Below, piece by piece: positions 8,120 through 29,700 of a stretch of 64,000 bases of DNA (the first letter of the stretch is position 1; the number at the start of each line of letters is the position of its first letter). A program made the translations under genes and the position numbers. The notes under the pieces are model-generated. The model saw nothing but the letters and a program-made list of their open reading frames with translations. It was not told the DNA's origin and did no database searches. The DNA comes from Cyanidioschyzon merolae (taxonomy: Eukaryota): NCBI GenBank assembly GCA_000091205.1, contig AP006502.2, one strand, 5' to 3'.

Positions 8120-10510
8120 ATGGGCAGGCAAGTAGTGGATTCGCGGAGCTTTGCGAGCCATGGCCGACAAAGGGCGATGCGCGCTTTCGCATCACCCAAG
8201 CGCGATCGGAAAAATGGGCGCTCATCAAAGCGAGTTCGCGTTGAGGCTGGAAGCCTGTCTGAGCAGCCTGGTGCTTCATTCGACGAAACGGACTGGATGA
8301 ACACGCGCTCTGCGGCGATCGAACGCGACACGCCTCGGTTCCAGTCCGGCAACGATTCGGATAGCGAACTCGACGGTTTGGGCAATCGTTCCGCGGGCCA
8401 TAATTCGAGGCGAATACTGAGCGGCAGTGTGTCGCCATACGACGTCTCTGCTAGCCCTGACGCGTCCTCTGCAAGCGAGCTTGAAGCGTCTCACGGAAGA
8501 GCGGCACGCGAGCGGCGCACTGCCGCCAACGACCGAGTCGACTCGAGTTATGGTGCCGACTTGATGGCTGATTTCAGTGCAAGCTCGCAGTCCTCTGATT
8601 CAGAGAATACTGAGCTGCTGGAAATGGAAGAGACTCGCGATAGCGATGCTTCCAGCGCTCTGGACAACGATGTCGAGGCCGATTACGAGAGCGCTTCGGA
8701 CCCGGGCCCAGAAGATGATACCGACGAAGACGAAGATGTACATGACGCTCTCTGGGACGAGAGGCCCGACGGACGGCGCCGGTCGTTGTACTACGACGCC
8801 GACACTGCTGTGCGTGAGGATCAACTGGATATCGATGAGCTGGACGAGGAGGAGGCGGAAGCGATGCGCCTCCAGCGACAACAACTTAGTCGCTTGCAGG
8901 CCCAGGACTTTACCGGCGGTATTGCAGTCTCTGAGCTCGCACGAGCCGTGGACGACACCGCACCGGGAGGCACGCCTCGGCCGTATGCCGCAGATGCAGC
9001 ATCGCTAGAGGCAACTGCTTCGGATCATGACCAGGTTGCAGTTCGAGAGGTGCTTCGATCGCTGTCGACGGCGCTCCAGGAGATCATTGAGGACCTGGAG
9101 CAGCTCTTGGAAACTGCAAAACGAGAACAATTAACAACGCACATGGAACGAGATCCGTTGCTGGGCCTCCTGGAGCTCAAGAGACAGCTGCTCCTCAACT
9201 ATGGAACGAATCTGGCTTTTTATCTTGCACTGAAAGCTGAATGCTCGTCGATCCGCGACCATCCTGTCATGGACCGTCTCATGGAGATAGGAGTCACACT
9301 GGACAAAATCCGTCCGCTGGAAGAACATGTTCGTGTACGCTTGGAGGCCCTGAAGCGAGCCGGTCAACAGCAATCGACATCAGCGTTGCGACCGGAGTTT
9401 GCACAAGGCAGCGAGTCTGATGACTCACTGCCAGCTTCAAACGGCACGAGCACAACCGATCAAACAGACGAAGGAGCGACTGGTCGATACAGGCCGCTCC
9501 TCACCACCGCAGAGACCTACGAAGACGAGCGCACGCGACGTCGACGCGAACAAGCCGTAGCGCGTGCTGACGCCGACCAGCGCCCGTACCGCTTTGAAGT
9601 TCGCCAGCTTGCACGCGAACTCAGCGACAAGCCCGAACAGGTAAGCCTGAACGCTGACCCCGAAGCAATGACTCGTGATGATATGCGGCTCGTGCGGCAG
9701 GCGGAGGCGCGCCAAGCATACGAGGAGGAACACCTTGTTCGTTTACCAGAGAGCAAAAAGGACCGACGAGCTCGCCGCCTTGCAGAAGCTACTCGCGGCC
9801 TGACCGCCATAGATTCGAAGACACGGACAAGTGGTATGACGGACCTGCTTTCCGTTGCGAATCGAATCGTCGAGGTGAGTCAGCGCGATCAGAGCCAAGT
9901 GCACGCGATGCCTCCAAAAGCGCTGCACGCTGAACGCACGTCACGGGCCGTCGACAGGCACCGCTCGGATGTGTCGTCCAGGCCCAGCACCGACTCGCAA
10001 GCAGCAGCAGCAGCAGCAGCAGCATCAAACCAGGTATCAGAAGCGTTCCTGCAACGTGCACAACATTCGACGTTTGACCAAAGCGCTACAGACAAGCGAG
10101 CAGCATTGAGTGCGTTCGAAGGTTCATCCGCGCCATCCGACTGGTCGTCGTTGCTCTACAAAGCAGCAGCGGATACGATGCAGCGCAAGCGTCAGAAGCG
10201 TACCCAGGGTAGCGCCGAAGCACTGGTCGCTTCACCGGATGACGACTTGCTGGCAGAGAATAGGCCACGACGAATAACGGATGAGATTCGAAGGAATCGC
10301 GGGTTAACAGCGCGCCGGCCTCGAAACGCTGCACATCGTAACCCGCGTGTGAAGCGACGGGTACGCTATGCAGAGGCCTTGGTTCGTCGCAAGGGTCAAG
10401 TGCGCGTCTATGATGATCGCACGCGCTCGGTTGCAGCTGCAGGCGCTTACAAGGGCGAAACAAGTGGTATCAACAAGCGCACGCGACAGAGTGTGGTTTT
10501 GCGGACGTAA
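8120..10510 (+). CDS. UTP3: Sas10/Utp3 (something-about-silencing 10), an SSU processome / U3 snoRNP protein
   Basis: Internal Sas10/Utp3/C1D domain (LELKRQLLLNYGTNLAFYLALKAEC..DHPVMDRLMEIGVTLDKIRPLEE). Characteristic Sas10 C-terminal domain (NRGLTARRPRNAAHRNPRVKRRVRYAEALVRRKGQVRVY). Long acidic D/E/S-rich N-terminus typical of the family. PolyA run from (GCA)8 at 10001..10024. Confidence 0.7.
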   Translation: MGRQVVDSRSFASHGRQRAMRAFASPKRDRKNGRSSKRVRVEAGSLSEQPGASFDETDWMNTRSAAIERDTPRFQSGNDSDSELDGLGNRSAGHNSRRILSGSVSPYDVSASPDASSASELEASHGRAARERRTAANDRVDSSYGADLMADFSASSQSSDSENTELLEMEETRDSDASSALDNDVEADYESASDPGPEDDTDEDEDVHDALWDERPDGRRRSLYYDADTAVREDQLDIDELDEEEAEAMRLQRQQLSRLQAQDFTGGIAVSELARAVDDTAPGGTPRPYAADAASLEATASDHDQVAVREVLRSLSTALQEIIEDLEQLLETAKREQLTTHMERDPLLGLLELKRQLLLNYGTNLAFYLALKAECSSIRDHPVMDRLMEIGVTLDKIRPLEEHVRVRLEALKRAGQQQSTSALRPEFAQGSESDDSLPASNGTSTTDQTDEGATGRYRPLLTTAETYEDERTRRRREQAVARADADQRPYRFEVRQLARELSDKPEQVSLNADPEAMTRDDMRLVRQAEARQAYEEEHLVRLPESKKDRRARRLAEATRGLTAIDSKTRTSGMTDLLSVANRIVEVSQRDQSQVHAMPPKALHAERTSRAVDRHRSDVSSRPSTDSQAAAAAAAASNQVSEAFLQRAQHSTFDQSATDKRAALSAFEGSSAPSDWSSLLYKAAADTMQRKRQKRTQGSAEALVASPDDDLLAENRPRRITDEIRRNRGLTARRPRNAAHRNPRVKRRVRYAEALVRRKGQVRVYDDRTRSVAAAGAYKGETSGINKRTRQSVVLRT

Positions 10511-10609: not shown

Positions 10610-12772
10610 CTAGTTCGTCGGGGGCGCTAGCGTGGCCTCCATCGCAGCCATAGTGGACGCGGTCGCTGGACTCTCCACCGGAGACGCGTCTTGTACATCA
10701 TGTGTGGATCGACTCGCATCCATCGCTCTGGTTGCGGATCCATTGAGTCGCGGGTGCCGCTGTTGGTCGCTACCGGCTGCGGCATGTTGTCCGTTCTGCA
10801 TTCCAGCGGTTTCGAGCGAGCTCGGTATCGGGGATGCGGCGGTAGCTGCGACTGGTGCTGCCCCCGCAGGTCGCAACCATCGCTGCTTCCATTCGAGCAT
10901 CTCCCGATACCATTCCTGGGCACGCGCGTAGTACTCGGGCCCTGCAGCTTGCGCTCGTCTCATGTAAGCGTCAATATCAAAGTGGAAGCTGTAACTTGGT
11001 GGTGTATTGGGCCGCGAACCGAATCCTTTCCAACCCGTTACCTGCTGTTGTGGTTGTTGCTGTTGTAGTTGCTGCTGCTGCTGCTGCTGCTGCACGTGAT
11101 CGAGCCACTCAAGCCATTGACTTGCGGCCTGCCCGCTCGAATGAATGTAGTTTGCAGGCGTGTTCGACGTCAGCGTATACGAAGATCCTAGTGCATGTGG
11201 CGACATGCCGTGAGCAGCATACAATTTCGCAGAGAAAGGCCCAGGCAGCGGACTCCATCCCCAGAGGGCGACATGCTCAGGGCTCGTGGGTCCACGGCTC
11301 GGCATATTCGATGGATACCCGCACGCTGCAGGTACCGCAGCGTCTGTCCGAGGCATGCCCTGAACCGCAGGCAGTGCGCCCGGGGACGGCGGTACTGATC
11401 GGTTTCCCAGTCCACGGACCGGTGAAGGAGGAACAGAGCTTGGTCGCGGGAAGAGCGGCCGCGGATTCAGAACAGACCGCGAAGCGGTGCTCGTCATTCC
11501 CCGTGGAGCACCTGGAGCCGCCGCCAGCCCAGGCCAAGCTGCACGATCCTCCTTGTTTTCTGTGAGCGCTGCATTTGCCGTGCGTGGTCGCTTCGGGCTG
11601 CTGATTTCTCGCAGTTCATGTCCATCGGGTACGCGCATTTCTTGAAACGACGGCATCACGGTGTTCACGTAAGCAGCAGGGTCTTCGGCGTTGGCCACCG
11701 CCAGCCAGGCGCCATCCGCCACAGAATCTGTCCCAGGAAGCGCACACGATGCGTAGCGTAGCGCTTCATTGGTAGAATGGAGTGAAGGCAATCGCTGCGT
11801 CGATCGTGCTATTGCAGCATCGGTCAGGCCCGCAGCTTGCAACTTGTCGGCAGAGGCCGGGCGCACTACTTGGTTCGAATACGGGTTCGGTAGCAACTCG
11901 CGTGGGGTGCGGAGCTCTTCCAGTCGCACGTTGTCCTCGCCGCACCAGACGAACGCTGGCTTCCGGTACTCCGTGTGCGTCTTCCGAATCAGCCCGAGCG
12001 AGGAAAGTATGTTTGCAATGTCATAGAGTCGTCGCACCTTGGTTTTCATGCCCCCATTTAGGGGATTTTCCTCCGCTTCGCGATTGCCGACACTCCCGGA
12101 TAACAAGATCGACGCTGCGTATTCCAGACTGATGGTGTCGCCACCTGCTAGCAGGAACAGTTGCACAAAACGCTGCGAGAGTGCGCCAAGTGATTTCTCC
12201 TTCCGCGACATGCGATGATTCTTCGTCGACGCGACGGATGGTTTGGATAATGCATTGGATGCAAGCAGGCTCTCTGGGCAGGTTGCGTAGCGTTCGACTT
12301 CGCTGGCTTTTGCTGTGGTCGACAAGGGCCCGCTGACCGGATCGTTGGCCAACTCGTCATCATCCCCATTGAGCTGACTCGAGTCTCCAAGGCCGGCAAC
12401 ACCTCCAGCGGATTCTGCCTCTTGTCTGAGGCGCTGGATGCTCTCTTTCAAACGACTTTGGCCTAGCCAAATATACTTGTTTTTGGCCTTTCGTGTCACC
12501 ATTCCGACGCTTTCGAGCACATTCACAATGTCATATATTCGTCTGCGCTCAACACCGAGGCGCGTCGCCGCTTCGTCCAGGCAAATTTCACATGAACTGT
12601 TTCCCCGTGCTTGTTCTAGAACGCCGTAAAGAGAAAGAAAATTCTCACAAAGCAAGCCGAGGGACTTGTCCTTGCGAGAGTATGCATCACCCGACACCAG
12701 CGGCTGCGAGCTTGATCGCGAGGTGCCCGGCTCACCGTAGCCCCTCATCGGTGACGCCCGATACGGGAACAT
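10610..12772 (-). CDS. Atypical E2F transcription factor (E2F7/E2F8/DEL-like) with two tandem E2F winged-helix DNA-binding domains
   Basis: DBD1 RKDKSLGLLCENFL..RRRIYDIVNVLESVGMVTRKAKNKYIWLG and DBD2 RKEKSLGALSQRFVQLFL..KVRRLYDIANILSSLGLIRKTHTEYRKPAFVWCG. No recognisable DP-dimerisation or marked-box region. C-terminal polyQ (QQQQQQQLQQQQPQQQ) from (CTG/TTG)n at 11045..11091. Confidence 0.8.
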   Translation of the reverse strand: MFPYRASPMRGYGEPGTSRSSSQPLVSGDAYSRKDKSLGLLCENFLSLYGVLEQARGNSSCEICLDEAATRLGVERRRIYDIVNVLESVGMVTRKAKNKYIWLGQSRLKESIQRLRQEAESAGGVAGLGDSSQLNGDDDELANDPVSGPLSTTAKASEVERYATCPESLLASNALSKPSVASTKNHRMSRKEKSLGALSQRFVQLFLLAGGDTISLEYAASILLSGSVGNREAEENPLNGGMKTKVRRLYDIANILSSLGLIRKTHTEYRKPAFVWCGEDNVRLEELRTPRELLPNPYSNQVVRPASADKLQAAGLTDAAIARSTQRLPSLHSTNEALRYASCALPGTDSVADGAWLAVANAEDPAAYVNTVMPSFQEMRVPDGHELREISSPKRPRTANAALTENKEDRAAWPGLAAAPGAPRGMTSTASRSVLNPRPLFPRPSSVPPSPVRGLGNRSVPPSPGALPAVQGMPRTDAAVPAACGYPSNMPSRGPTSPEHVALWGWSPLPGPFSAKLYAAHGMSPHALGSSYTLTSNTPANYIHSSGQAASQWLEWLDHVQQQQQQQQLQQQQPQQQVTGWKGFGSRPNTPPSYSFHFDIDAYMRRAQAAGPEYYARAQEWYREMLEWKQRWLRPAGAAPVAATAASPIPSSLETAGMQNGQHAAAGSDQQRHPRLNGSATRAMDASRSTHDVQDASPVESPATASTMAAMEATLAPPTN

Positions 12773-13624
12773 CGCTCAGGCTACCAGCACACGGGTAGTG
12801 AGCGAGCCCTTGCTCTATCGGAAACCAAGCCAACAATAACCCGAAAGAATCAAGTTTCCTTGCACACAGCGCTTCTTACGCAAAGTTTCCAGGCCAGCTC
12901 TCGGTTGATCCCGTCACCGACGCTGTACAACAGAAACCCTGTGAAACGACCGATGGGTGAGGCACGCACCTGCACTGCACGGCTGCGAACGCGAACACTC
13001 GTTACGCAACAGAGTGGCGCGCCCCCTTCCAGGCTTGTGTGTCCGCGTTTACACAACCGGGACGGAAGCCGACCACCAGCGGTATCCACGCAAGTCGCAC
13101 CCCGTACGATACAGACACAAGTCGCAGACTGCTCAAGAGGCGACCCAGTAGCGTGCACTCGTTTCCGCACCAGCCCAAGCGTGCACAAGCTACGCTGCGT
13201 GGTACGCTCACCTACGCCACACACAAATAAACACACCTGTACACCAGAAACGATAGCCAACTGAGGTCAGCCTTCTTCGGAAGGAAGCAAGCAAGGACTA
13301 TGCACCCTACCCGAACAGGAGCTGCGCCAACAGCGCAACGAAAAAGGCAGCTGCGCCCAGCAACGACGGCAGTCGAAAGTGCTCAACTCCGAATAGAGCT
13401 AGCCGGGCTATGGCAGTGCGTCTCTAGCGCGCGAATGATTTGGCGCGGAATTGCAACGCCTTGGCGCCGCCGCCGCCGCCGGCGCCTCCGAAGTCCTGCG
13501 GGTGCAGCCAAACAGCAACGCGCTCGAATCGCGACGGCGGCGGTGCGGAGATCCGCCAAGCATTCCAGGGGTTCCTATGGATTGTACAGATGGAGCGACA
13601 AGTGGCAATCCATGGGAACAGGGG

Positions 13625-13903
13625 CGTGGAGACGCGGCTAGCGCTGTTGATCGAGCGTTTGCTATAGTCCGCTTCATACATTATTGTACGTAAATATACA
13701 ATGCATTGCATCCGAGGCTTGGAGACGCGGCTAGCGCGGTTGATCGAGCGTTTGCTATAGTCCGATTCATACATTATTGTACGTAAATATACACTGCATT
13801 GCATCCGAGGCTTGGAGACGCGGCTAGCGCTGTTGATCGAGCGTTTGCTATAGTCCGATTCATACATTATTGTACGTAAATATACACTGCATTGCATCCG
13901 AGG
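13625..13903. repeat. Minisatellite: three tandem copies of a 93-bp unit (cttggagacgcggctagcgctgttgatcgagcgtttgctatagtccgattcatacattattgtacgtaaatatacactgcattgcatccgagg)
   Basis: Read directly. Copies at about 13625-13717, 13718-13810 and 13811-13903, over 95% identical. Generates the spurious repetitive ORF 13424..13897 (-). Confidence 0.9.
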
Positions 13904-16286
13904 TTCGCAGGCCGCGAAACGACTCGCCTGACGAAGTTTGCGATTCGTGCGGCCGCATCGATCGACACTGGTCCGTGTCTCTGCAGGAACCTGGATTTGG
14001 GCCAGCGGTATTTTTCATTCAATGACCCTGTATTGGAGTGCATTTCAAACGTTGGCAGGCTTACTTGCGACGCAAGTTGTCTGTAGAGCTATCTTTTCAC
14101 AGTGCAGCGTTGCTTCAAAATGCTCTTGAAGGGTTTTCGGGCGACGCGCCTTGACGGTCATTTGCTTTTCTGCAAGTCAATGAATGAGTTGTCGAATGCA
14201 CGTACCTGGCATCTGAAGCGCGTATGCCGCGGTCGACTTGGGTGCGCTGTCCCATGCACTCCTGCCCATGATCTTCGGCAATAGCCATACGGACGTCGGT
14301 GTAGGCTATGAATGAAGCGTACGGAGCATCTCGTTCCGGTCACGACGGTGCTCAGAGCGTCGAGACGCGTGCACGCACCACCATGCCACTATTTGGTATG
14401 CCACTTGGCTTTTATCATGTCCAGTGCTCGACGAAGCTGAACGCTGAAAAAATCAAGTCGCATCGCGTATGCTGTACCGAGCATCATTTGTCGCACGGAG
14501 GTTTGATCGAGGAATTCCAGAGGAATTCGGACAGTTGCCATCTCAGAGTCGGGAAGCCCGAAAACCTGACGTCTGACAAGATGCGTCCACCGGAGAGAAG
14601 CGGTGCGCAACATTGATGGATAACAAGCTATATGATCGCTGATGGCGTCGCACAACTTTCGGTGTCGCGGATGCGAGCGACTCGTCTATGGATCCTTGAG
14701 CGGAAAACTAGCGCGTGCCATTAGCGACAATACCTTCGACATGATGAATCAAAGGAGACGGGCTGATACGAAGCGTCACTGACCGCGTATCCCAGCATCA
14801 CACTCTTCGACCGCATTTTCATGATGGAAAGCAACGATTCGCTAGAACAGGACGGATGCATGTGCCAACAGGAAGCCTCGGGGCTCGCGTCTACGAAACA
14901 TGAAGCGCTGGACGAGTCTGTATGGCTGGCGATTTCCAGACCACCAGTGGATAGAATCGCCGCTAGGGCTAATGTCGTCGGAATGCCGGCTTTTCTCTTT
15001 TTTACGAACAGCACTTTACCCCGGTTTGCGTACCCCCAGACAGGTCCAGCATTGCTCCTGCGTAAGTCTCGTCCAGTGGGACAAATACCCGTCCATCTTG
15101 TAAGACGCGTTCGTGTTTCATTTAGCAATCGCTCGTGTGCTTCGTCGAGCCGCGACCGGCTCCCATAGAAGCGTGCGTTGCTCTCTCTGTTTCGTTCCAT
15201 GTGTCATGATCACCGTTTGTATGAACGATACGGAACGTGCGCGCTCTGCGCCTCCTTTTTTTTGTCGTGTATCTCAAACAGCATACGGAATAGAGCAGGC
15301 TACCGAGTATCCATTCGTGTCCATTGCGTTTCACGGGTTCCGTTTTGGGGTGCATGATGTTCCGCATGCGCTGCGTAAAAAACTGGTTCATGCATCACCT
15401 GATGGTACGATATCCGATTTATGCAAGCAAGATCATGATGCTCGCACGCCAGCACTGACTTAGAAACGCTTTCCGTTCCCTCTCGCCAATGTACGCGATG
15501 CTTTCCTTTTCTCGAATTCCTGCAAGAACAACAAACATGCACAAAAAGGTCGCACTAACGCCGATGCTCCAGAATGCACCGCTCCCAATACAACGACACA
15601 GCAGAGACAGAACCAAGGCATGTATGTTTTCTCGACTACACTCGTTCCCACGAAAGCGTAGCTCGACGAAAAAAGATCTTCGGTTCGATGACCCCGCACG
15701 CACGCTAGGTACTTGCGAGCGTTACGAATACAGGTGTTGGCAACGTGTTTTGCGTTGGCATCGACCGCGTCCGGCGGTTCGGATACATTCTAGGATACCT
15801 ATGTCTTGAGGGCGGTATGCGATACGTGGCGACGCTTACCGAAACGCAGCGCGATTCCTCGCGTCGACTCGGTGAACCGAGTGTCGAATCATGCCGTCGG
15901 GTATTGTCAGCACGTCCGTGGGTGCTGTCGCGCGCTCCGAGCTTCATACCCATCCCCTGCCGAGGAGCTCTCTTTCGCGGGACACTTCCGGACCTGAAAC
16001 TGTCTACCAGTTGCCGAGTGATCATCCACAGCTCCACACATGGGAACGGCGTCAAGTGAATCGTCGGGAAACGTTTCCCCGGGGAGCAATGCTCTGCTTC
16101 GAGACAGGTCCAAATGCACCCAACGCAGATGCAAACGTATCCGCTTGGAGACTCCTTGTGACGGACCTGGGTCGCTTCCGAGCGCCCCGGTACGCTGCTG
16201 AAGACGCGAATGCTGCACTGGCCACATGAAACGTTTGAATCGCTCTGTGGATAGATATGCTTTAAGCGAAGCGTGCTTCATGCCAT

Positions 16287-19285: not shown

Positions 19286-20446
19286 GTGTTGGCGTTCCTC
19301 GCACTGTTTTGTTTTCGATCTAGTAATCAGTTCTTGACCATGTTTCTGGCTCCGACAATACACTTCACGCACAGAAAACACCGCATTGGAACCCTCGGGA
19401 ACCGAGTAGTAGCTCGCTACCATCGACCGTGCACCAACGTTCCAAAACCGCGAGCCCGTGTTCCGTCTCTTCAACGCCGGCTCTCAGTTCAAGCGTCGGC
19501 TCTCAGAGTGGGCCACGGCTTTGATCTGCATCGCCTGGAACCTGGACTACCTCTGATTCTCGGTGGTGTGCGTCTCGAGCACGATCGTGGTTGCGCAGCG
19601 CACTCGGACGGCGACGCCGTCTACCACGCTGTTACGGACGCGATTTTGGGTGCCTTGGCACTGCCGGACATTGGCCAGCTTTTCCCGGACACCGACCCCC
19701 AATGGAAAGGGGCAACTTCGGATGTTTTTCTCCGGGCAGCCGGGGCTATGATGCTTCAACAGGGGTACCGCATCGCGAACCTCGACGTTACTGTCATTCT
19801 GGAACGGCCCAAGCTCGCCCCGCACAAAGAACAAATACGCCAGAATATAGCGGGACTTTTGGGGCTTAGTCTCGAACAAGTGAATTTGAAAGCAAAAACA
19901 CACGAAAAAGTAGATAGCATCGGGGAGAATCGCAGCGTCGGCTGTCACGCCATGATCCTACTCGAGCGTCAACCGCTCGGGAACAGTGACGAGCCTTCCA
20001 CGTCCGCATCCGAAAGCTTCGCATCATCAGCAAGCGGTGCTCCCAACGCTGCATCTCCTAATAGTCTGGAATCGGGTGTGTTTGCCGCACTCGCAGCGAC
20101 GCTCTCTCGAGTCCATGAAGTGATCGAGTCACGACGGTCAGCAGACCCGGAGAAATCATGGACAGCGAAGCTCTTCGCGAAAGGACGCCATAAAATCGCC
20201 CAGAAAGTCGGCGAGGAAGCGCTTGAAGTGGCACTAGATGCTGTGCAAAATCGACCTGATCGCGTCGTGGAAGAAAGCGCCGACCTGTTGTACCACCTTT
20301 TGGTACTGTGGGCGGATCTGGGAGTCCATCCCAACCAGATCGCAGCGGAGCTTGAAAAGCGACAAGGCAAAAGCGGTTTACGCGAAAAGCAGCATCGCAA
20401 TGAATACAAGGACACAAAGGAGCAGCATGATTTGGTGCAGCACTAA
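19286..20446 (+). CDS. ispF: Two-domain protein: IspF (2-C-methyl-D-erythritol 2,4-cyclodiphosphate synthase) joined to HisE (phosphoribosyl-ATP pyrophosphohydrolase), with a putative N-terminal transit peptide
   Basis: Residues ~80-235 match IspF: GHGFDLHRL..GGVRLEH..GCAAHSDGDAVYHAVTDAILGALALPDIGQLFPDTDPQWKGATSDVFLRAAG..ANLDVTVILERPKLAPH..VNLKAKTHEKVDSIGE. The C-terminal ~100 aa match HisE: SWTAKLFAKGRHKIAQKVGEEALEVALDA..VVEESADLLYHLLVLWADLGV..IAAELEKR. There is no stop codon and no internal Met between the two domains. Confidence 0.85.
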   Translation: MLAFLALFCFRSSNQFLTMFLAPTIHFTHRKHRIGTLGNRVVARYHRPCTNVPKPRARVPSLQRRLSVQASALRVGHGFDLHRLEPGLPLILGGVRLEHDRGCAAHSDGDAVYHAVTDAILGALALPDIGQLFPDTDPQWKGATSDVFLRAAGAMMLQQGYRIANLDVTVILERPKLAPHKEQIRQNIAGLLGLSLEQVNLKAKTHEKVDSIGENRSVGCHAMILLERQPLGNSDEPSTSASESFASSASGAPNAASPNSLESGVFAALAATLSRVHEVIESRRSADPEKSWTAKLFAKGRHKIAQKVGEEALEVALDAVQNRPDRVVEESADLLYHLLVLWADLGVHPNQIAAELEKRQGKSGLREKQHRNEYKDTKEQHDLVQH

Positions 20447-20709: not shown

Positions 20710-23700
20710 TCATGAACGAAAATAGACACCGAGTGGAAACGATACCGAAGCGTCGTATGCGTACAGGGCATCTGCCCAGCCACGGGGCACTGGTACAAAA
20801 CCTTGGAACAAGTGCGGCTGCCGACACCGTTGCCATGCGTTCGGTGTTGCAGATTCCCCGTAACCCGCTTGTTTGGCATCCGTCCGTCCTATAATCGATG
20901 CAGTGGTGTTGCAGCGCGAGTCTGGCGATGCCTTTGAGCGCTTTTGGACGCGCCAGGGTGCTTCCGGGCACTCCGCTTGTTCCCGGGGGCCGGACTGGTC
21001 TAGTCGGAGCTGGGGCAACCACCAGCGCTCCATCACGACAACTCGGGAGCAGGGCGAACGAGACCTGCAAAGCGCGACATACCACACTGTTTGGAGCCGG
21101 TCTGCAACGGCGTTCGCCACAACTGCGCTCGTCAACGGAATCGTGAGGAGCCGCCAGCCTCTGCTGGTACGTCTCGGAAGCATTTTCAAACGCAGAACAA
21201 GATCGTCGGCGGATGCCGGTACCCAACGCTGGATGAACCAGTAGACTCGCCGCCAGAAGCATCGCCAGCACCTGCTTTCCTTTGTGAGCGTCGCCTGCGC
21301 AGCGGTATCTGCTCGAACTGGATGCTGACGCTGCTTCAGGTTCAGCACACAGGGGCAACGGATTTGCGGCATGACCTGTTCCGGTGCCAGGGCAAGCACA
21401 TGCAGCTTGTCGTAGCCGGGAGGCATCAGCCACAACATGATCACGTCGCTCCACTGGAGCTCATCCAGGACCTGCCACGAGCAACTTGAGCGATTCACGG
21501 AAAACGGACCGTTTGTCGGTAGCCGCAAGTGCCAGAGACGCCGATTCGTGCACAACACAGCCTCGTTCGGCACTGGACGACAACAAAAGCGATACTGCTC
21601 CGACAAAAGTTCCGAGGAGCTCGCCTGATCGAGCATCTGCCACAGTTCGTATCCCAGCACTGCATCTTCGATGTCGTAGCTGTGATCCAGCTTTGTGCTG
21701 GGCATCCGCGGAGGTCTCAACGGAGCGCTCCATTCGGCAACGCTCCACGTCCATGCGGTCTCCCCAGCAGCCGATTCAATCAGATGCCACGCTGCTTGGT
21801 CTAACAGATCCCGAGCTATTGCCAGCACCGTAGCCGTTGCCTGCATCATGAACAGAAGCGGTGTCGCGAGGAGGATGCCCATTCGTTGGCCGGCCGCGGC
21901 ATGCCACCACCACCGCCACCGCCACCGCCGCCGAAGACGCTCCACCTTGGAGCTGCTGGCACGCTCGGCTGGTGACCCAGGCACCACTGCATCCGTTTTC
22001 GAGTACCGCTGCTGGTGCTGGTGCCCATGAGACGCACCTCCGGTACCTGAAACTTGAACGCGACGCTCAAGGAACCGTGCTGCCCCGCTGTTCGCGTCCG
22101 GGATGCTCCGGTTGTGTGCAGCGCCTGGCATGCGCGCTGCAATATCAAGGGCGAGCGTCGCCAGCCCTATATGTTGCCTGAGGGTTCCCGCTGCCAGCGC
22201 TATCATTCGATGGAATGCATCCAGGGAGGCTGCACCTAACCCCGCGCCATACCCCAGCGACAACGCTGCCGCTGCTCCTAAGATACGGTGCCGATGGCGC
22301 TGACGCAACAACGCTCCGAGTTGTCTCGCTATCTGACGAACAAGTCGACTTAAATGGCGCGCATATCGTGCCGGATTCCCTAACCATTCCGCAGAACTGA
22401 TGACTTTCCAAACCTCCCGGTTCAGTTGTTGTTGATAATGGCGCACCAGGTGCTGCACCAGGTCGTCGCTTGTCTCAAAGGTACCGTCGAGGACGAGTTC
22501 GCGTAGCCACAGCGATGCATCCTGAACATTCATGAGCGGTGTAAGCATGAGTGCTGTCAAACGGGGCCACTCGCTTCCGCGGTATTGCAGGAGCGTTCCC
22601 AGGCTCACCAGGTCGGTTCGTACCGATAGAGTGCATGCCAGCGGAGCGCATACAACGTCGTGAAAAGCGAGTCGCAGGGAGCGTTCAGAACGCTGCTGCA
22701 CCTGGGACACACTGGGAACACCTCGTAGCAGCGCCTGCTCCAGGGCGCGTCTCAAAAGCTGACAAGCGTCAGCGCCAGCCCGGTACTGGGCAGCGGAGCT
22801 ACCGAGCGCTTCATTCGCACCAGCGTCATATTGACAGCAACTGCAGTCGCTCTCCCTGCGCGCTGTGCACTGCGTCAACGATTCCCGTAATGAACGCGAC
22901 AACGGCATTGACGATAGCGATGATCGTGACGACGACGTATCCCCAGAGCGACATGTCCAGCAATACCTCGATGCCGGTGCATTGCCGTCACGCAATATCC
23001 GAGCCGCTGCTCCAGCTCGCCTCGAACTGGAGCTCCTTGCCCGCGCTTGCGTCAGTCGCTGAGCACTTGTTGCTGCAACGAGGCCCATGCTTGGTGTCCA
23101 GAAGATCTCCAGCTCTTGATCCTGCTGCTCAGCACCAACAGACGCCATTCGCAATGCATCAGCAGACGTTTCAACGGGGGTCATGGCATCGACTTGTCGC
23201 CGCCAAGCCACGAACCAGTCAACCATTTGAACAACCAGCGATGCATCGATGTCGAGATCGAGTCGTCCACACCGCACCTGTCCCGAGTGGATCCGTAGAA
23301 ACGTATGCGCACCAGTGCTACTAGACTCGAAACGGGTTCGCAGTACACAAGCAGCTTGCTTCGGGGCTCGCCAAGCGCCATCGTCGCTCGTCCACCGCCT
23401 CGAGGCAACCGATGCTGATAACGATGACGCTCCAGGCGCTGACGCTGACCCCTGACAAGCATACGAAACGGGCCTGCGACGGAGCGAGAACCACGAGACA
23501 ACCGCCAGCCGATCTAGCTGCCGGCTCGTGTTGTGATCTGGACGTATCGACGACTTCTTCTTCTTCTTCTTCTTCGAGTGCCGTTCGTGATCCGAAGCGA
23601 GGCTCAGTGCTCGGCTTGTGCGCGAGGCAGCGTCATTCGCTGCGACACTGTGCAGCCTCAGCGGTACACACCAGGCACCTGGTAATGTAGGATGCTGCAG

Positions 23701-26700
23701 AGCCGAACTGTGATCGAGTTGCAGTGCCTCGCAGACAAAAGCGACCTCACCATGGTAGCTCTCATCCAAACTGGCCTTTTGACGCAGCATATCGCTTCCA
23801 TCTTGGGTGCGTTTGACGTGATGCCAACGCGCATCCACGCCTCGTATGCCGAGGTAGACGACTTGTTCGAAAAGTGGCGGCTCTCTTGTCGTTGTCGTCA
23901 TCCGCAGCAGGGAAATGCCCATCTCGGGTACGCAGAGCTCACATGTGAACGCAGAGGCGTGGCGATCGATACCAGCACCAGCGTAGTGCATTGTCGTACT
24001 GGCTGGAAGCGCGTCCAGCGGTGTTTCAGACGGCGAGGTTTCTGTCGAAACATCATGTCGCTCGTCTACAGAGCGCTGCAGCGACGTTGACGCACCACGG
24101 CTTTGACTCGAGCGTCGAGGCACTGCAGGCTGTTCCTGTTGTTGCTCGTTTTCGGCGATGATGAGCGCAAGCGTTGCCTGGCATCGCTGCAGGCGAATCT
24201 GGAACGTGCGGCTTCGAGACGCTGCACCCGGAGCGCCCGCGGAGTTCGCTACACACCAGCGAACACTTTGATTACAGACCAAGTGCACCGCTGTCTGCGA
24301 GGCAACGTGCACGCGACGACGGCGATGACGACGACGACGACAACCGAGCCCCACTAGTTGCCAGAGACGAGTCCGGCATTGTTGCAGACGCGGAATCACG
24401 CGCAGTTGGACCGCTTGTCCCGTTCGTTTTCCGTCATGATATCCCCGGTGCCTGCTACGCCCGTTGGTGCGGTCGCCGCTGACACCGCTGTCGGTTGCAA
24501 CCTGTGTTTCTCCATGTACAGCTGCAACTGAAGCATGCGAATGCAGCTCGGGCTCTAAGCGAAAAGCGCCCACGTATCCAATCCCGTCGATCCAGAGCTC
24601 GAGAATCGGCTCTGCAAGCGGCTCATCCCAGGTGTAGGCGCATTCCGAGAGCGGGTCCAGTGCTTGCAGCGCATCGTCATCGATAACGTCCTGGGTCTGC
24701 TTCATGCAGCAGCCGCTTCGACAGTGCGCCGGTTCAAGGCGTTGAGCGAAACGAATGCGTTCAATCGTCTGATTCCGGATCCGATACGGTACCAGCAACG
24801 GATGCGGCGGCAGAATCGTTACCAGATGCACGGGTGTCACTGGACTGGTACCTGCTGCAGTGTGCACCCGCGGAAACTGACAAGCGCCCGTTGAGGCCTG
24901 GCGAAGACGCAGACACCAGTCGCTACCAGCGGTGACGGGAACACGTCCACTCCAGTACCAGCCGGGAGCAGCAATGCGGATGCGAAGGCATGGCTTGTTC
25001 GTACCAGCTGGCCAGTGCAACGTTGCCATGGCACCAGGCTCGAGGCGAAAGACGCTCCCGTCAGCGAGCAGTCTGTCGATATCGTTGGCGGCTGTTGGCC
25101 GGACGTCGACAAGGTCCAGGTCGCTGCCGGGGCTGTGCGTTCCTGCCCGGGGATTTGCGGCCCCGAATGATAAGCATTCATCGCCGGTATCCTGGTCGAC
25201 AGGCCATACCAGGAGCGTGTAGGCCGGCCACAAGTTCACCAGGCGGTATCGCGGGTACACCACGAGCAGCCGCGAACGCTCGAGCGGATACCCCAGCGGT
25301 TGGACGCAGACGACCGCATCCAACTGACGAGGACGCGGTACATACGCACCGTCGAACGTTGTCGGTGTCGATGAAGACGACGACGGCCAAGTTTCTGCCA
25401 CCGCTGCGGCAGGTGACCAAGCGCTAAAGCGTGGAGCGATAGAACGCGACACTTGAGACAAGCGCGAATGCGGTGTTGTCGCTGCTGCTGCTGCTGGTGC
25501 TGCGGCTAATGATGATGATACAAGCCACGGCCAACGAGCGTCTGTTTCAAGTGGTGTCGATACGCTCGCGTGTCTTGATCGCACTAGTCGCAACGGACTA
25601 GTTTTCACTTCAGGAGTACCAGTAGCAGCAACATGAACAACAGCATCCGCTACCGTCACCGCAGCTTGTGTGGGTGCTCGATCGGCACCGTGTGCAGATG
25701 CAAGGCGTTGCCAGGCGCTAGGCTGCTGCAGCACCGCCGCCGGAGACGCGAGCATCGCACGAGTCCATCTGTGCGGCTTACGCTCACCTGCAACTGCATA
25801 GAGAGAAATCACCAGGGCCTCATGCGCAAGTCTGGTGCCTGCACACCACGCACTCCATTCGGTATGTGCAGTGCGCCACGAGAGTGCGAGCTCTGGAAGC
25901 GACCATGCAGTCCAGGGACACGGGGCGAGTGTGAGCGGCAGCACTTGTCCGCAAACGGGGCCGCCGTTGTGTCCACCACCACGTGCTTGATACGGTAACC
26001 GCCCATAACGAGCGTTCTCGAATGCATCAAAAGCACCAGTCGTATGAGCAGATATTGGACGCGGCGGTGCGCACTCGCGACATGTCAAGGGCATGGAGCT
26101 GCTGCTACTGCTGCTGCTGCTGCTGCTGCAGGGATAGGCAACGCTTTGGATGGGCGTTTGCGGTGCAGCTGTTGCCGTAGCCTGCTCTGCTTGCACAGTC
26201 TCGAGGTCAGACTGGACACCAGGGCGTCCCGTGTCGATCCAGTTTGCCAAATGTCGTCGCAGTTGCGAGCACCAGGAGCGCCTCTCTGCAGGGATTGCCT
26301 GCATCAAGGTCGTCGGCGACGCTGTCCACAGTGAGCACCACAGTTCCGGAACGCACAGGGTTATCTGCCGCAAAGCACGTGGGTGCTCCCATCCAAAGTC
26401 GACTGCAAAACACGTCCCCAGTGGTGACATTGTTTCCGCGGGCTTCCAAGGCCACGGTGCCAGCCACCTGGGCGCATCGTAGACTACCCGTCGACGATAA
26501 TCATCGCACTCGTGTTCGATCGCATCCGCATGAATGGTTGCTGCTTCTGCTGCTGCTGCTTCTGCTGCTTCTGCTGCTGCTGCTGCTGCGTTCGGCTCGT
26601 TTGCTGTTCGATGAGGTGATCGATCCCGAATCGCTAATGACCTGCACACCTGGGAGGAAAGCGCAAGTGCACCACGATCGGATGCTACCACTGCCTCAGT

Positions 26701-29700
26701 CTGAGAGGTTACAAGTTCATCCAGCCAAGGATGAATCGGGAACAAGTCAGTCGACGCTGTGGTAGGCAGCTGAATCCAGACACGTCCAGGCAACAAGAAT
26801 GCCGATGAATCGGATGCTGCTGTTGACGTTGACTTTGACTGGTGTCCTCGATATCGAGGCAGATGCCGCTGGTGGCTGGTGGCGGCTTTTGGGCGTCGCT
26901 GCTGACGCCAGCCTGCCACCTCCTGGACGGTAGCTCGACGAGCGCCTGGCACACCAGCACGGGTGCAGTCTTTCGCGTTGGCATTGGCGGCAGCGGCGGT
27001 ACTGTCGACTTGGAGCTCCTCCAGCAGCGCCATAGGAGGCGGCTCGAACGCCTCCGGCAACGCCAGCGATACCCAGTGTGCTGGTTGCCAGCAGCAGCTC
27101 GTGGGGATGCTCGTATCCTCAGCGCTGTCCGAGGCATTCCGGGCAGGGTGCTGGTGCTGGTGCTGGTGCTGGTGCTGGTCGTGAAGATTCGTTTCGCTTT
27201 CGGGAGCGCCACCTAGTGTCGCTCTTGTTGCCAAACGCTTCCTCGAGGGATCCGTTGGTGCACTTGGTGCTCCAGTCGTTGACGCTACTGCTTTTGCTGC
27301 GGATAGCGCACACTCGAGATCAAACAGTGCATCCATCCGACAGCTGCGATACACTTGACCAGGCCAGAGCAGTGTCGCTCGATCCACGAAAACAGGTTCG
27401 ATCGATGCATTCCGTATTTGCCAGGGTGCATGGAGCGTCACCAACACAAGAGGCACGCTCACCGCCTCGTTACTCGTTGGTACACGACGAATGACCTGGG
27501 CAGTGAGCAGCGCACCCCAGATGGGGTCCGGCTCCGGATTCAGGTGCCTCGCAGAGCGCGTTCGCGGACGACGACTCGGTATCGGAGACGGTGCCAATGG
27601 ACCCAACCAGAGCACTCGGGATTCGTCGTCGCGAACATTCTGGGCAAGGTCCACGAACCAGGACCACAAGTACGAGGCAGGATGCACACTCGCAACTGCA
27701 GATGCATTGCTGACGCCGTGTTCACCGGTTCGGCACACATTCGGAGCAGTCACTTGGGGGCAGGCATCGTGTTCACTGCATTGCACTTGTCGTGGTTGTT
27801 GCGCTTCACACCCGAGCATGGACGGTGCAGGTAACCTGGTGCTGCTTGCATCCACGTCTGGTACCATCGCGTCATCGTCCAGTTCCGTGCAGAGCTGCCA
27901 GACACAGGGTGTTGGTGCAAACAACGAGGCTGCTCGGATATTGGTACGCGAAGCGAAACTCGATGCTCCATTCTGGACGGCTGTTGGATTCGCAGTCGCT
28001 TCGAAACGAGCTATACAGCACGGAGTGTTACGCACGTTCGAAGTGGTGTCATGCGTCCACAGTGACAAGCAGAGTGGCGTCTGATTCTCCCAGTACAGGG
28101 GCGACTCGAAGCGGCAGAGCCACTGGGGATCTGGTGTTGCTGCTGTTTGACCAGTGGCTGTTACCTTTTCAGAAACAACGCTTTTGCGTCGATACAGAAC
28201 AACCACCAGCACCAAACAGGGCCACTGCAAGGCTTGTATCGCCACGAGCTCGAGCGCAGCGTCAGGCGCGACCCAGCTGAGGGCCTCGCTTCGCGATACA
28301 CCTCCAGAGCGATTATCCAATGGTGCATCCAATGATGATGATGATGATGATGATGTCAGAAACCGTCGCCACTCGGAGAGACGCAGCACCTGCGGATTCT
28401 GGTCCAAAGCGTGAACCGCAATGTCTTGATAGAACGATGCTCGGGGAACGTATCGCATCTCGTCGACAGCGAGCGTACCGTACGCGCTCAGGTGCAGCGG
28501 CAAGCCACTAGCATTGACAAGAGCGAGCGTACCACACTGAGGGCGAACTGGTACCACCAGTGCGGCGCGCTCTGGCCTGCCTGCCTGTATTTGCAGCGTT
28601 CGCTCCACAGCAGCAGCGATTCGAGGCGTAATGTTCAAGCACAAGGCGTCGGTGCTGCTCAGGCGCAGCAGTGTCTGGCGGGCGGGCAGCGTAGACGCCT
28701 CGTGTGACCCACAACAGGCATCAGCAGCAATGCCGTTGCTGTTGTCGTTGTCGTTGTCGTTGTCGTTGTTCACAGCAGCTGTCTGTCGTTCTAGTTGCTG
28801 CAATTGCAGTTGCAATCGTGCCGGCTCCAGAACGAGCTCATCAGTGAGGAACGCTCGGCAGGAGCCCTGCACCTGGAGCCAAAGCGCTGTCCATGGAATG
28901 ACATGTTGCAGGACGCGAACTGAGAGGTTATCGATTTGCAGCGACCACTGCAAGCTGCTTGTCGCGTATGCACCAGCGCTAGCACCAGCACCAGCACCAG
29001 CATCGACAGGAATAGAAACAGCTGCTCCGGCAACGTGCATGGTAAGGGTAACAAGGCGGCCGTCGACTTGATACCATCGAGGCTCACTGAGCGCGCAGGG
29101 TGCTTCATCTGACGTCGATAACGACGACAAAGAAGACGATGATGATCCAGAGGAGAACGAGTTGCGGTGCTGGCCGACTGAGGATGATGCACGACGACGC
29201 CACCAATCGTTGTTCCAGTGTATATCCAGTGTCGACCAAGAGAGGCGCTTCTCAACATGCGGATACGCACAGTTTCGAACTAGGCACTGTTGCAGATGAA
29301 GCGCACAGCCACGCAGCCACAACGCGGAAGCCGCGAGTCCCCCAGCTGGAGTCGACAGAGGCCTCGAATCCGCAGCGCGAACATCAAACGCTGAGAAGCG
29401 ATCATCATCATCATCATCATCATCATCATCTGTGCCGTTTTTGTCTGCTTGACTCGATAAAGCGCTGATCGAGTCGTGCTGCCCTGTGCTTGCATCTCGA
29501 TACCTCGTCTGGCAATGGTAGTGCCGGTGATTCATCGGGGGTATTTGCGGCCTGCTTCGCCAGCGTCCCTGCTCATCGATGTAGCTCGCTAGACTGGAAG
29601 CCGTTGCTACCAGTGAGGCCACCACGAGATCACGCGGATACGCCTGTTCGTAGCCGGGGACGCGGTACCACTTGGGACGATCCCAGAATACAGCCTTACC

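Follow-up and report, generated by a model that had tools for sequence, protein, structure and literature searches.

The window, meaning the whole 64,000-nucleotide stretch of DNA that was analysed, carries on its minus strand one unbroken reading frame of 2163 nucleotides with an ATG start, encoding 720 amino acids (Table 1). The protein is identical to BAM83371.1/XP_005539407.1 (CMT433C) of Cyanidioschyzon merolae 10D, for which the GenBank and RefSeq product label is just 'transcription factor E2F'. Through this exact identity, the compact, intron-poor genome of a plastid-bearing host supposed in the original prediction is shown to be that of a red alga, and both peptide strings quoted there are found in the reading frame. 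M1 is supported as the start because the N-terminal sequence MFxYRxSPxRGY is kept in Cyanidiococcus. The gene order is conserved in three genera, with an ATP-synthase subunit followed by the E2F7/8 gene and then by Sas10. Rfam and tRNA scans of the entire window gave no matches.

Table 1. Features of the CMT433C locus (positions in the window)
Feature	Position	Strand	Basis
CMT433C coding sequence, single exon, 720 aa	10610..12772	-	ORF list; protein identity; locus tag from PMC11231608
DBD1, first E2F_TDP winged helix, aa 34-104, with RRRIYD	12461..12673	-	PF02319
Inter-domain segment, aa 105-190: helix after DBD1, then linker	12203..12460	-	AF2, A2 alignment
DBD2, second E2F_TDP winged helix, aa 191-278, with VRRLYD	11939..12202	-	PF02319
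KRPR basic patch, aa 394-397, within SPKRPRTAN	11582..11593	-	motif scan
Interrupted polyQ Q8-L-Q4-P-Q3, aa 561-577	11042..11092	-	codons, TRF
Conserved C-terminal motif, aa 596-632	10877..10987	-	kept in Cyanidiococcus, Cyanidium, Compsopogon, Agarophyton
Conserved promoter block GCGTTGCAATTCCGCGCCAAATCATTCGCGCG, 32 bp, 656-687 bp upstream of ATG	13428..13459	-	blastn
Four TTSSCGC E2F-consensus sites	13324..13467	.	densest cluster in 64-kb window

The expected pair of significant E2F_TDP domains was recovered. Pfam PF02319 matched the whole protein in two stretches (E=3.3e-41), and when the segments around the two DNA-binding domains were scanned separately (aa 25-125 for DBD1 and aa 180-285 for DBD2) each passed the Pfam cut-off of 25.7 bits alone, with 83.2 bits (E=1.1e-23) and 65.9 bits (E=2.8e-18), respectively, a result well outside the reach of chance. 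The RRRIYD of DBD1 lies at aa 76-81 and the VRRLYD of DBD2 at aa 246-251; RRxYD is invariant in both domains throughout an 11-taxon alignment (A2) of red algae, streptophytes and plants. DBD2 carries an insertion ahead of the recognition helix. Among PDB sequences, the best match of the whole protein was human E2F8 (4yo2_A) across both domains (E=1.8e-37), while E2F4 matched DBD1 only, at 39.9 bits. The alignment of DBD1 to E2F8 residues 3-88 reached 75.2 bits. For DBD2 searched alone, the best match was the DBD2 of E2F8 (residues 151-225) with 79.2 bits, compared to 28.7 bits for E2F4, and no DP chain occurred among its PDB sequence matches.

Structure prediction gave a similar picture. The AF2 model of aa 25-285 (pLDDT 77.7, pTM 0.72) comprises two winged-helix modules, with a pLDDT of ~85-95 in DBD1. 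The linker between them is predicted to be disordered, with a pLDDT of ~45-55 at model residues ~111-167 and low conservation in A2. In a Foldseek search at E<=1e-3, 4yo2_A was the sole match and spanned both domains (250 aligned columns, TM 0.69 normalised to the target). With an rmsd of 7.3 A across the aligned columns as a whole, the modelled packing of the two domains resembles that structure only moderately.

The coiled-coil/marked-box region (CC-MB, PF16421) and the DP domain (PF08781) gave no match at E<=10, either in the whole protein or in its isolated 435-aa C-terminal half. A regex search of CMT433C for an RB-binding-like tail (DYxxxLxxxE..DLF-like) and for LxCxE was likewise without match, there being no curated profile for such a short motif; absence of the CC-MB and of the RB-binding tail here means these negative profile and regex searches. 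Pfam matches to FYRC and Med3 in the C-terminal half (E about 0.015, under their own cut-offs) were dismissed as low-complexity noise because they overlap the polyQ tract. The protein follows neither the canonical E2F layout of E2F1-6 and plant E2Fa-c, a single DBD followed by CC-MB and RB-binding domains, nor the DP layout, a single E2F_TDP domain with PF08781.

CMT433C is thus confirmed as a genuine two-DBD atypical E2F of the E2F7/8/DEL type, the class proposed for it from the DNA. By bit scores and Foldseek, its sequence and fold lie nearer to those of E2F7/8/DEL proteins than to those of E2F1-6 or DP, and its named homologues are E2FE, E2FF and E2F7/8 proteins. The gene already carried an annotation, and published work had already classified it. 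XP_005539407.1/CMT433C stands in the E2F7/8 clade of a tree published in 2024, and many red algae possess one E2F7/8 gene each (PMC11231608); the canonical E2F of C. merolae is a separate gene, CMT067C (PMC11376382). A survey of 2016 recovered E2F7/8 from across the supergroups of eukaryotes, and an origin of atypical E2Fs as early as the last eukaryotic common ancestor (LECA) has been inferred. Since this placement and wide spread are published, the presence of the gene in a red alga adds nothing on the origin of atypical E2Fs, and the phylogenetic interest once claimed for it is outdated. Three items appear to be new, namely a conserved block of E2F sites in the promoter, a C-terminal motif and an allele with a clean two-unit CAG difference.

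The polyQ tract had been described as a long C-terminal tail. It is short and internal, ending 143 residues ahead of the stop, and its codons run (CAG)7-CAA and then CAA/CAG with interruptions; TRF reports (TGC)8 at 11070-11093. The length polymorphism anticipated for it does exist. The first run comprises 7, 8, 9 or 10 Q in environmental alleles, among which a P574Q change is also present, and the allele L003 has (CAG)9 instead of (CAG)7 on a 99.3% identical background, a clean gain of two units. Cyanidiococcus and Cyanidium keep a Q-rich patch at the corresponding position, with about 5-7 Q in the sister genera. The pure (CAG)7 run is therefore a length-polymorphic microsatellite within a short, evolutionarily labile tract.

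Downstream of the tract lies a motif of roughly 40 aa, F-D-I-D-x-Y-M-R-R-A-Q-A-A-G-P-E-Y-Y-x-x-A-x-x-W-x-x-x-phi-x-x-W-[KQ]-x-x-W, in short form YMxxAxxAGPxYxxxAxxW...W[QK]xxW. Among 1.84 billion representatives, no more than 59 proteins matched a profile of this motif. Of 44 new matches, PF02319 is the sole Pfam family in 33, and the rest are fragments. The motif is confined to E2F7/8-type proteins, its named carriers are all red algae, and it is missing from plant DELs. It had no Pfam match, and the best hit among PDB sequences (E=0.93) was not meaningful. It is a candidate partner-binding or repression module. Between DBD2 and the polyQ tract, the KRPR patch corresponds to TPKRPRTAN in Cyanidiococcus and to APKRP in Marchantia; it is a candidate nuclear localisation signal and overlaps an SPxK/R CDK-type site.

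Another apparently new element is found upstream of the gene. The block GCGTTGCAATTCCGCGCCAAATCATTCGCGCG holds two adjacent E2F-type sites, TTTGGCGCGGAA and TTCGCGC, and in a blastn comparison of the intergenic regions of C. merolae and Cyanidiococcus it alone reached significance (30/32 identical, E=1e-8). Its distance to the ATG is similar in both species, it is identical in the environmental allele L003, and its core TCCGCGCCAAA is also present upstream of the Cyanidium ortholog, together with a total of three E2F sites there. E2F sites upstream of the E2F7/8 gene are thus conserved in three genera; being an E2F target with expression that peaks at G1/S is typical of the family without strictly defining it. 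The four TTSSCGC sites of C. merolae lie at 13324(-), 13429(-), 13440(+) and 13461(+), and of 5000 uniform placements 33 produced at least four sites within 150 bp, as did 1 of 200 local-composition shuffles. Over the window as a whole TTSSCGC is not enriched (41 observed, 62 expected), and the weight of the promoter evidence comes solely from the local cluster and the fact that it is conserved between species. The sites can be assigned to CMT433C because the neighbouring upstream gene faces the promoter with its 3' end. Upstream spacer lengths are 3.5 kb for C. merolae, 1.9 kb for Cyanidiococcus and 0.6 kb for Cyanidium, and a 93-bp tandem repeat in three copies is found, among these three, in C. 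merolae only. Because the ORFs within the 3.5-kb spacer are short, overlap one another and lack conservation with Cyanidiococcus, the spacer was treated as non-coding. In both C. merolae and Cyanidiococcus the block is separated from the ATG by about 660 bp, a long way for such a compact genome, and this speaks against the feedback account given below.

Taken together, these features suggest that CMT433C is the single atypical E2F of C. merolae and acts in an E2F negative-feedback loop, an account to which we assign a probability of roughly 0.8. By comparison with the human E2F8 structure, the two DBDs would pack together as an intramolecular mimic of an E2F-DP heterodimer. In analogy to E2F7/8/DEL proteins of animals and plants, CMT433C would bind TTTSSCGC-type sites with no need for DP and free of RB control, and would compete with or repress the activating E2F-DP (CMT067C and DP) at S-phase promoters. 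The activator E2F would turn CMT433C on at G1/S, and the product would then damp E2F targets, possibly including its own gene. Such a conserved negative-feedback loop is the most likely circuit by analogy, with the mammalian E2F1-E2F7/8 circuit as a precedent (PMC7185961). It fits the conserved E2F pair in the gene's own promoter and the published G1/S peak: high expression of CMT433C at G1-S is stated in PMC11231608, after Fujiwara et al. (2020, Plant Physiol 183:1484). The literature searched yielded no EMSA, ChIP or loss-of-function transcriptomics on CMT433C, and the repressor function is inferred by analogy to its relatives. Two further readings, that an E2F to atypical-E2F feedback loop operates in red algae and that the C-terminal motif is an undescribed effector or partner-binding module, are more tentative, and we would put them at somewhat below even odds.

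The principal competitor accepts the atypical architecture and makes CMT433C mainly an activator or a dual-function factor, with the Q-rich tract and the C-terminal motif recruiting co-activators. Q-rich tracts often accompany activation domains, and the position of the patch is kept in Cyanidiococcus and Cyanidium; the conserved C-terminal motif has no counterpart in plant DELs. The published tree paper does not assign the red-algal E2Fs to activators or suppressors (PMC11231608), and the transcript is reported to rise under nitrogen depletion, a non-proliferative condition (PMC8152781). However, all characterised members of the class (E2F7, E2F8 and DEL1) mainly repress E2F targets, and the shortness and unconstrained length of the polyQ, from 7-10 Q among alleles to about 5-7 in the sister genera, argue against a critical role in activation. 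This possibility is considered unlikely, though it deserves to be taken seriously.

Much less room is left for the view that CMT433C is a canonical, DP-dependent and RB-regulated E2F. It draws on the database product name and on the match of DBD1 to E2F4, but for both DBDs the match to E2F8 is roughly double in strength, the RB-binding-like tail and LxCxE were not found by regex, and the canonical role is held by CMT067C. The presence of two DBDs and the lack of any CC-MB or DP dimerisation match at E<=10 effectively refute this view, which is left very improbable. The two-DBD layout could also be imagined as an assembly or gene-model fusion of adjacent single-DBD genes, or as a decaying pseudogene. 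No points in favour of such an artefact were found. The frame is single and uninterrupted, three cyanidiophycean genomes that share the synteny and a large number of independent metagenome contigs show the same architecture and length, and environmental alleles share 99% protein identity, with indels restricted to in-frame CAG units. These conservation data refute the fusion or pseudogene explanation, whose probability is close to nil.

Human E2F8 and E2F7 (4YO2) resemble CMT433C in the tandem E2F_TDP domains, each with RRxYD, and in lacking the CC-MB and, as the regex search of CMT433C suggests, the RB-binding domain; they also share E2F sites in their own promoters and, as far as the secondary account of its expression goes, a G1/S peak. 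Outside the DBDs there is no detectable similarity to E2F8, the linker differs in length and sequence, and a motif scan of CMT433C found no KEN box, whereas polyQ and the red-algal C-terminal motif are additions of the algal protein; its repression and DP-independence would follow from E2F8 by analogy. Plant DEL1-3/E2Fd-f (Arabidopsis E2FE/E2FF and the Marchantia MpDEL 'E2F7/8') have the same two-DBD layout and are the closest named homologues outside red algae, with 43-49% identity over the DBD module. Marchantia also has a basic KRP patch after DBD2. Plant DELs are shorter, about 400-450 aa in angiosperms, and instead of YMxxAxxAGPxY...W they show a different segment, QYQN..HY.E.WRSWY, at the aligned C-terminal position. 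Orthologues include CDCA02G0657 of Cyanidium, PXF48075.1 of Gracilariopsis and CCYA01G0166 of Cyanidiococcus, the last with 56% identity over the full length and the same syntenic position. The red-algal orthologues share the C-terminal motif, the Q-rich patch and the upstream E2F sites, occur in one copy per genome and differ from CMT433C in polyQ length. Canonical E2Fs (CMT067C, human E2F1-6, E2F4 in PDB 1CF7) share the E2F-type winged helix with DBD1, which probably recognises the same TTTSSCGC sites. In contrast to CMT433C, in which none of these traits was found, they have a single DBD, a leucine-zipper/marked-box region, an RB-binding transactivation domain and a need for DP.

As a discovery, CMT433C matters little, being annotated and already placed in the E2F7/8 clade. 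Its value lies in the host. The canonical E2F (CMT067C), RB (CMT038C) and the atypical E2F (CMT433C) are each encoded by exactly one gene in C. merolae, which is also genetically tractable, with inducible protein degradation already applied to the canonical E2F. The alga is perhaps the simplest photosynthetic system in which the ancestry of the atypical-E2F feedback loop can be tested. If the two more tentative readings are true, the loop, so far functionally shown in animals and plants, would extend towards the base of Archaeplastida and, taken with opisthokonts, would point towards LECA, and the C-terminal motif would give atypical E2Fs a lineage-specific mechanism of repression. The promoter block and the C-terminal motif offer two concrete, mutable targets for such a test.

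The protein encoded by CMT433C, the subject gene, contains both peptide pairs quoted in the original prediction (RKDKSLGLLCENFL...RRRIYDIVNVLESVGMV and RKEKSLGALSQRFVQLF...VRRLYDIANILSSLGLI) and is identical at every residue to BAM83371.1/XP_005539407.1 of C. merolae strain 10D, named 'transcription factor E2F' in the database and encoded on a 1,621,617-bp contig. A reduced, intron-poor genome of a plastid-bearing organism had been anticipated, in agreement with this ultra-compact red alga. The gene of XP_005539407.1 carries the locus tag CMT433C and is one of two E2F genes in C. merolae, already placed in the E2F7/8 clade, the other being CMT067C of the E2F1-6 clade (PMC11231608). CMT067C is the canonical E2F, with a functional study in C. 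merolae, and CMT038C is RB (PMC11376382). The 10D annotation starts at M1 and metagenome gene callers at M9 (712-aa forms); M1 is favoured because the N-terminal MFxYRxSPxRGY is also kept in Cyanidiococcus.

Features of the window and of the orthologous loci
Feature	Coordinates	Strand	Remarks
CMT433C ORF	10610..12772	-	720 aa, uninterrupted, ATG start (six-frame ORF list)
Alternative starts	12746-12772	-	aa 1-9
PolyQ tract Q8-L-Q4-P-Q3	11042-11092	-	aa 561-577; ends 143 residues ahead of stop
C-terminal motif FDIDxYMRRAQAAGPEYYxxAxxWxxxMxxW[KQ]xxW	10877-10987	-	aa 596-632; alignment with other red algae
Upstream spacer	12773-16286		3.5 kb
Four TTSSCGC sites	13324-13467		within 144 bp
Conserved block GCGTTGCAATTCCGCGCCAAATCATTCGCGCG	13428-13459	- (gene strand)	32 bp; 30/32 identical, E=1e-8
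Repeat 'ORF' (rejected)	13424..13897	-	157 aa
Tandem repeat	13623-13903		93-bp unit x3 in perfect tandem, 97% matches
BAM83370.1, convergent neighbour	8120..10510	+	stop 99 bp from CMT433C stop
(AGC)8 in BAM83370.1	10000-10024		encodes Ala8 run
YgbB + PRA-PH fusion gene	19286-20446	+	Cyanidiococcus (L001) 420-1520; Cyanidium (L002) 1265-2317
Giant ORF	20710-34830	-	4706 aa, uninterrupted

The two tandem E2F domains that had been claimed could be confirmed individually. PF02319 (E2F_TDP) matched two stretches of the whole protein (Pfam-A, E=3.3e-41), and when the protein was cut into three fragments, each scanned alone against Pfam, residues 25-125 (DBD1; 83.2 bits, E=1.1e-23) and 180-285 (DBD2; 65.9 bits, E=2.8e-18) both exceeded the 25.7-bit cut-off. 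PF16421 (E2F_CC-MB) was absent from the Pfam-A matches even at E<=10; neither a lone PF02319 match nor a coiled-coil/marked-box region, the two outcomes named beforehand as contrary, was thus obtained. The C-terminal 435 residues gave just sub-threshold matches to FYRC and Med3, both overlapping the polyQ tract and rejected as low-complexity noise.

The top match among all PDB sequences was human E2F8 (4yo2_A, E=1.8e-37), which aligned separately to DBD1 (query 32-119, 75.2 bits) and DBD2 (query 187-268, 55.7 bits), whereas E2F4 (1cf7_A) matched DBD1 only (39.9 bits). DBD2 as sole query scored 79.2 bits against E2F8 DBD2 and 28.7 bits against E2F4, and no DP chain was among its PDB matches. 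Named sequences among the best 120 homologues listed came from Cyanidiococcus (56% identity across 99% of the length), Cyanidium, other red algae and the streptophyte E2FE/E2FF/'E2F7/8' proteins, and RRxYD with its flanking residues was invariant in both domains of an 11-taxon alignment. An AlphaFold2 model of residues 25-285 (39 homologues as input; mean pLDDT 77.7, pTM 0.72) displayed two confident winged-helix modules joined by a disordered linker. The sole Foldseek match in the PDB at E<=1e-3 was again 4yo2_A (E=4.1e-8, 250 aligned columns, target-normalised TM 0.69); E2F4, ranked second, covered one domain only. The modelled packing is consistent with the intramolecular pseudo-heterodimer of E2F8, yet short of proof because the overall rmsd is 7.3 A. 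By its architecture and every similarity test run, CMT433C belongs in the E2F7/E2F8/DEL family, as originally assigned from domains and now supported by PDB matches, homologues and fold. The biochemistry that defines this family is DP-independent DNA binding and repression; for every red-algal member, both properties are putative.

This classification is correct but known already (PMC11231608) and not new, the C. merolae proteome having been included before in E2F/DP/DEL phylogenies (PMC13237563). The original prediction, sound on gene identity, is not supported in its phylogenetic significance: the premise of a class known mainly from animals and land plants is outdated because of Medina et al. 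and the periodic E2F7 of Capsaspora (PMC7098662). Three modest additions appear to be novel: a conserved promoter block of E2F sites, a C-terminal motif restricted to E2F7/8-type proteins, and length variation of the CAG run, for which the evidence is direct. They make C. merolae, which has a single gene each for canonical E2F, atypical E2F and RB and for which degron tools already exist, a clean system in which an ancestral origin of the atypical-E2F feedback loop could be tested.

Window-wide, TTSSCGC was not enriched (41 observed, ~62 expected in 64 kb). The densest cluster, four sites, lies upstream of CMT433C; uniform placement produced such a density (at least four per 150 bp) 33 times in 5000, local-composition shuffling once in 200. 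Orthologous loci of Cyanidiococcus yangmingshanensis and Cyanidium caldarium share the order VPS13-like giant gene, YgbB/PRA-PH, ATP-synthase alpha/beta-type subunit, E2F7/8, Sas10/Utp3, JAB and zf-A20/AN1. Since the E2F7/8 gene and its upstream neighbour are co-oriented, their spacer comprises the neighbour's 3' end and the CMT433C promoter, and the sites are therefore assigned to CMT433C. Comparing the 3514-bp spacer of C. merolae with the 1887-bp spacer of Cyanidiococcus by blastn returned a single significant match, the 32-bp block, ~660 and ~650 bp from the ATG, respectively. It holds TTTGGCGCGGAA, a near-palindromic classical E2F site, with an adjoining TTCGCGC, and is identical in L003, an environmental contig that carries another allele. 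The 608-bp Cyanidium spacer contains TTTGGCGCG at -440, TTTTGGCGCGGA at -171 and TTCGCGC at -114. Judged by this conservation, the block is a phylogenetic footprint of predicted E2F-type sites in the promoter of an atypical E2F gene, and its distance from the ATG implies either that the 5' UTR is long or that the promoter is distal. Such a footprint fits the reported G1/S expression of CMT433C (PMC11231608) and, by analogy, the mammalian circuit in which E2F7/8 are induced by E2F1 and then repress E2F1 and its targets (PMC7185961).

Given the compactness of the genome, the spacer separating CMT433C from the ATP-synthase subunit gene is of unusual length (syntenic spacers: Cyanidiococcus 1.9 kb, Cyanidium 0.6 kb) and holds no convincing ORF; the 157-aa 'ORF' is a spurious product of the 93-bp tandem repeat. 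This repeat lies just upstream of the E2F-site cluster, has no further copies in the window and was not found in the Cyanidiococcus and Cyanidium spacers; L003 starts within it.

In an exhaustive search of 1.84 billion representative proteins, a profile of the C-terminal motif (49 columns, 24 segments; shorter form YMxxAxxAGPxYxxxAxxW...W[QK]xxW) matched only 59 at E<=1e-3 (45 at <=1e-10), almost always near the C-terminus. PF02319 was present in 33 of 44 previously unseen motif proteins and other Pfam families in none; the proteins in which no DBD could be detected are fragments 48-426 aa long. The motif, which has no counterpart in Pfam or PDB, always occurred in E2F7/8-type proteins or fragments thereof. 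Every carrier with a name belongs to the Rhodophyta (Cyanidioschyzon, Cyanidiococcus, Cyanidium, Compsopogon, Agarophyton), whereas land-plant DEL/E2FE, Marchantia, Mesostigma and the Rhodosorus sequence lack it in the alignment. A motif scan of CMT433C revealed 13 S/T-P sites and neither a KEN box nor LxCxE; its conserved SPKRPR basic patch is a candidate NLS and candidate CDK site.

Instead of the long C-terminal polyQ tail described originally, the tract is short and internal, encoded by (CAG)7-CAA followed by CTA CAA CAG CAA CAA CCA CAA CAG CAG. The predicted length polymorphism was borne out. In the 90%-identity cluster of the protein (28 sequences, mostly from hot-spring metagenomes), the first run has 7, 8, 9 or 10 Q in ten near-full-length members that are 99-100% identical outside it (P574 frequently Q), sizes to be read with the caveat that metagenome assemblies can mis-size microsatellites. 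L003, 99.3% identical to 10D across 4471 bp, has (CAG)9 versus (CAG)7, a clean in-frame two-unit difference. Because sister genera have a shorter Q-rich patch at the matching position, the tract is labile, its length probably under little constraint.

The convergent neighbour BAM83370.1, annotated 'similar to charged amino acid rich leucine zipper factor-1', matches Sas10/Utp3 (SSU processome) in Pfam. It contains an (AGC)8 microsatellite and measures 796 aa in 10D versus 774-776 aa in environmental cluster members; it may also differ in length or start codon. The fusion of a YgbB domain (MEcPP synthase of the plastid isoprenoid pathway) to a PRA-PH domain (phosphoribosyl-ATP pyrophosphohydrolase of the histidine pathway) is kept in all three cyanidiophycean genera. 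VPS13_N/VPS13_VAB matches in the syntenic proteins of Cyanidiococcus (4538 aa) and Cyanidium (3095+ aa) make it probable that the giant ORF encodes a VPS13-family lipid-transfer protein.
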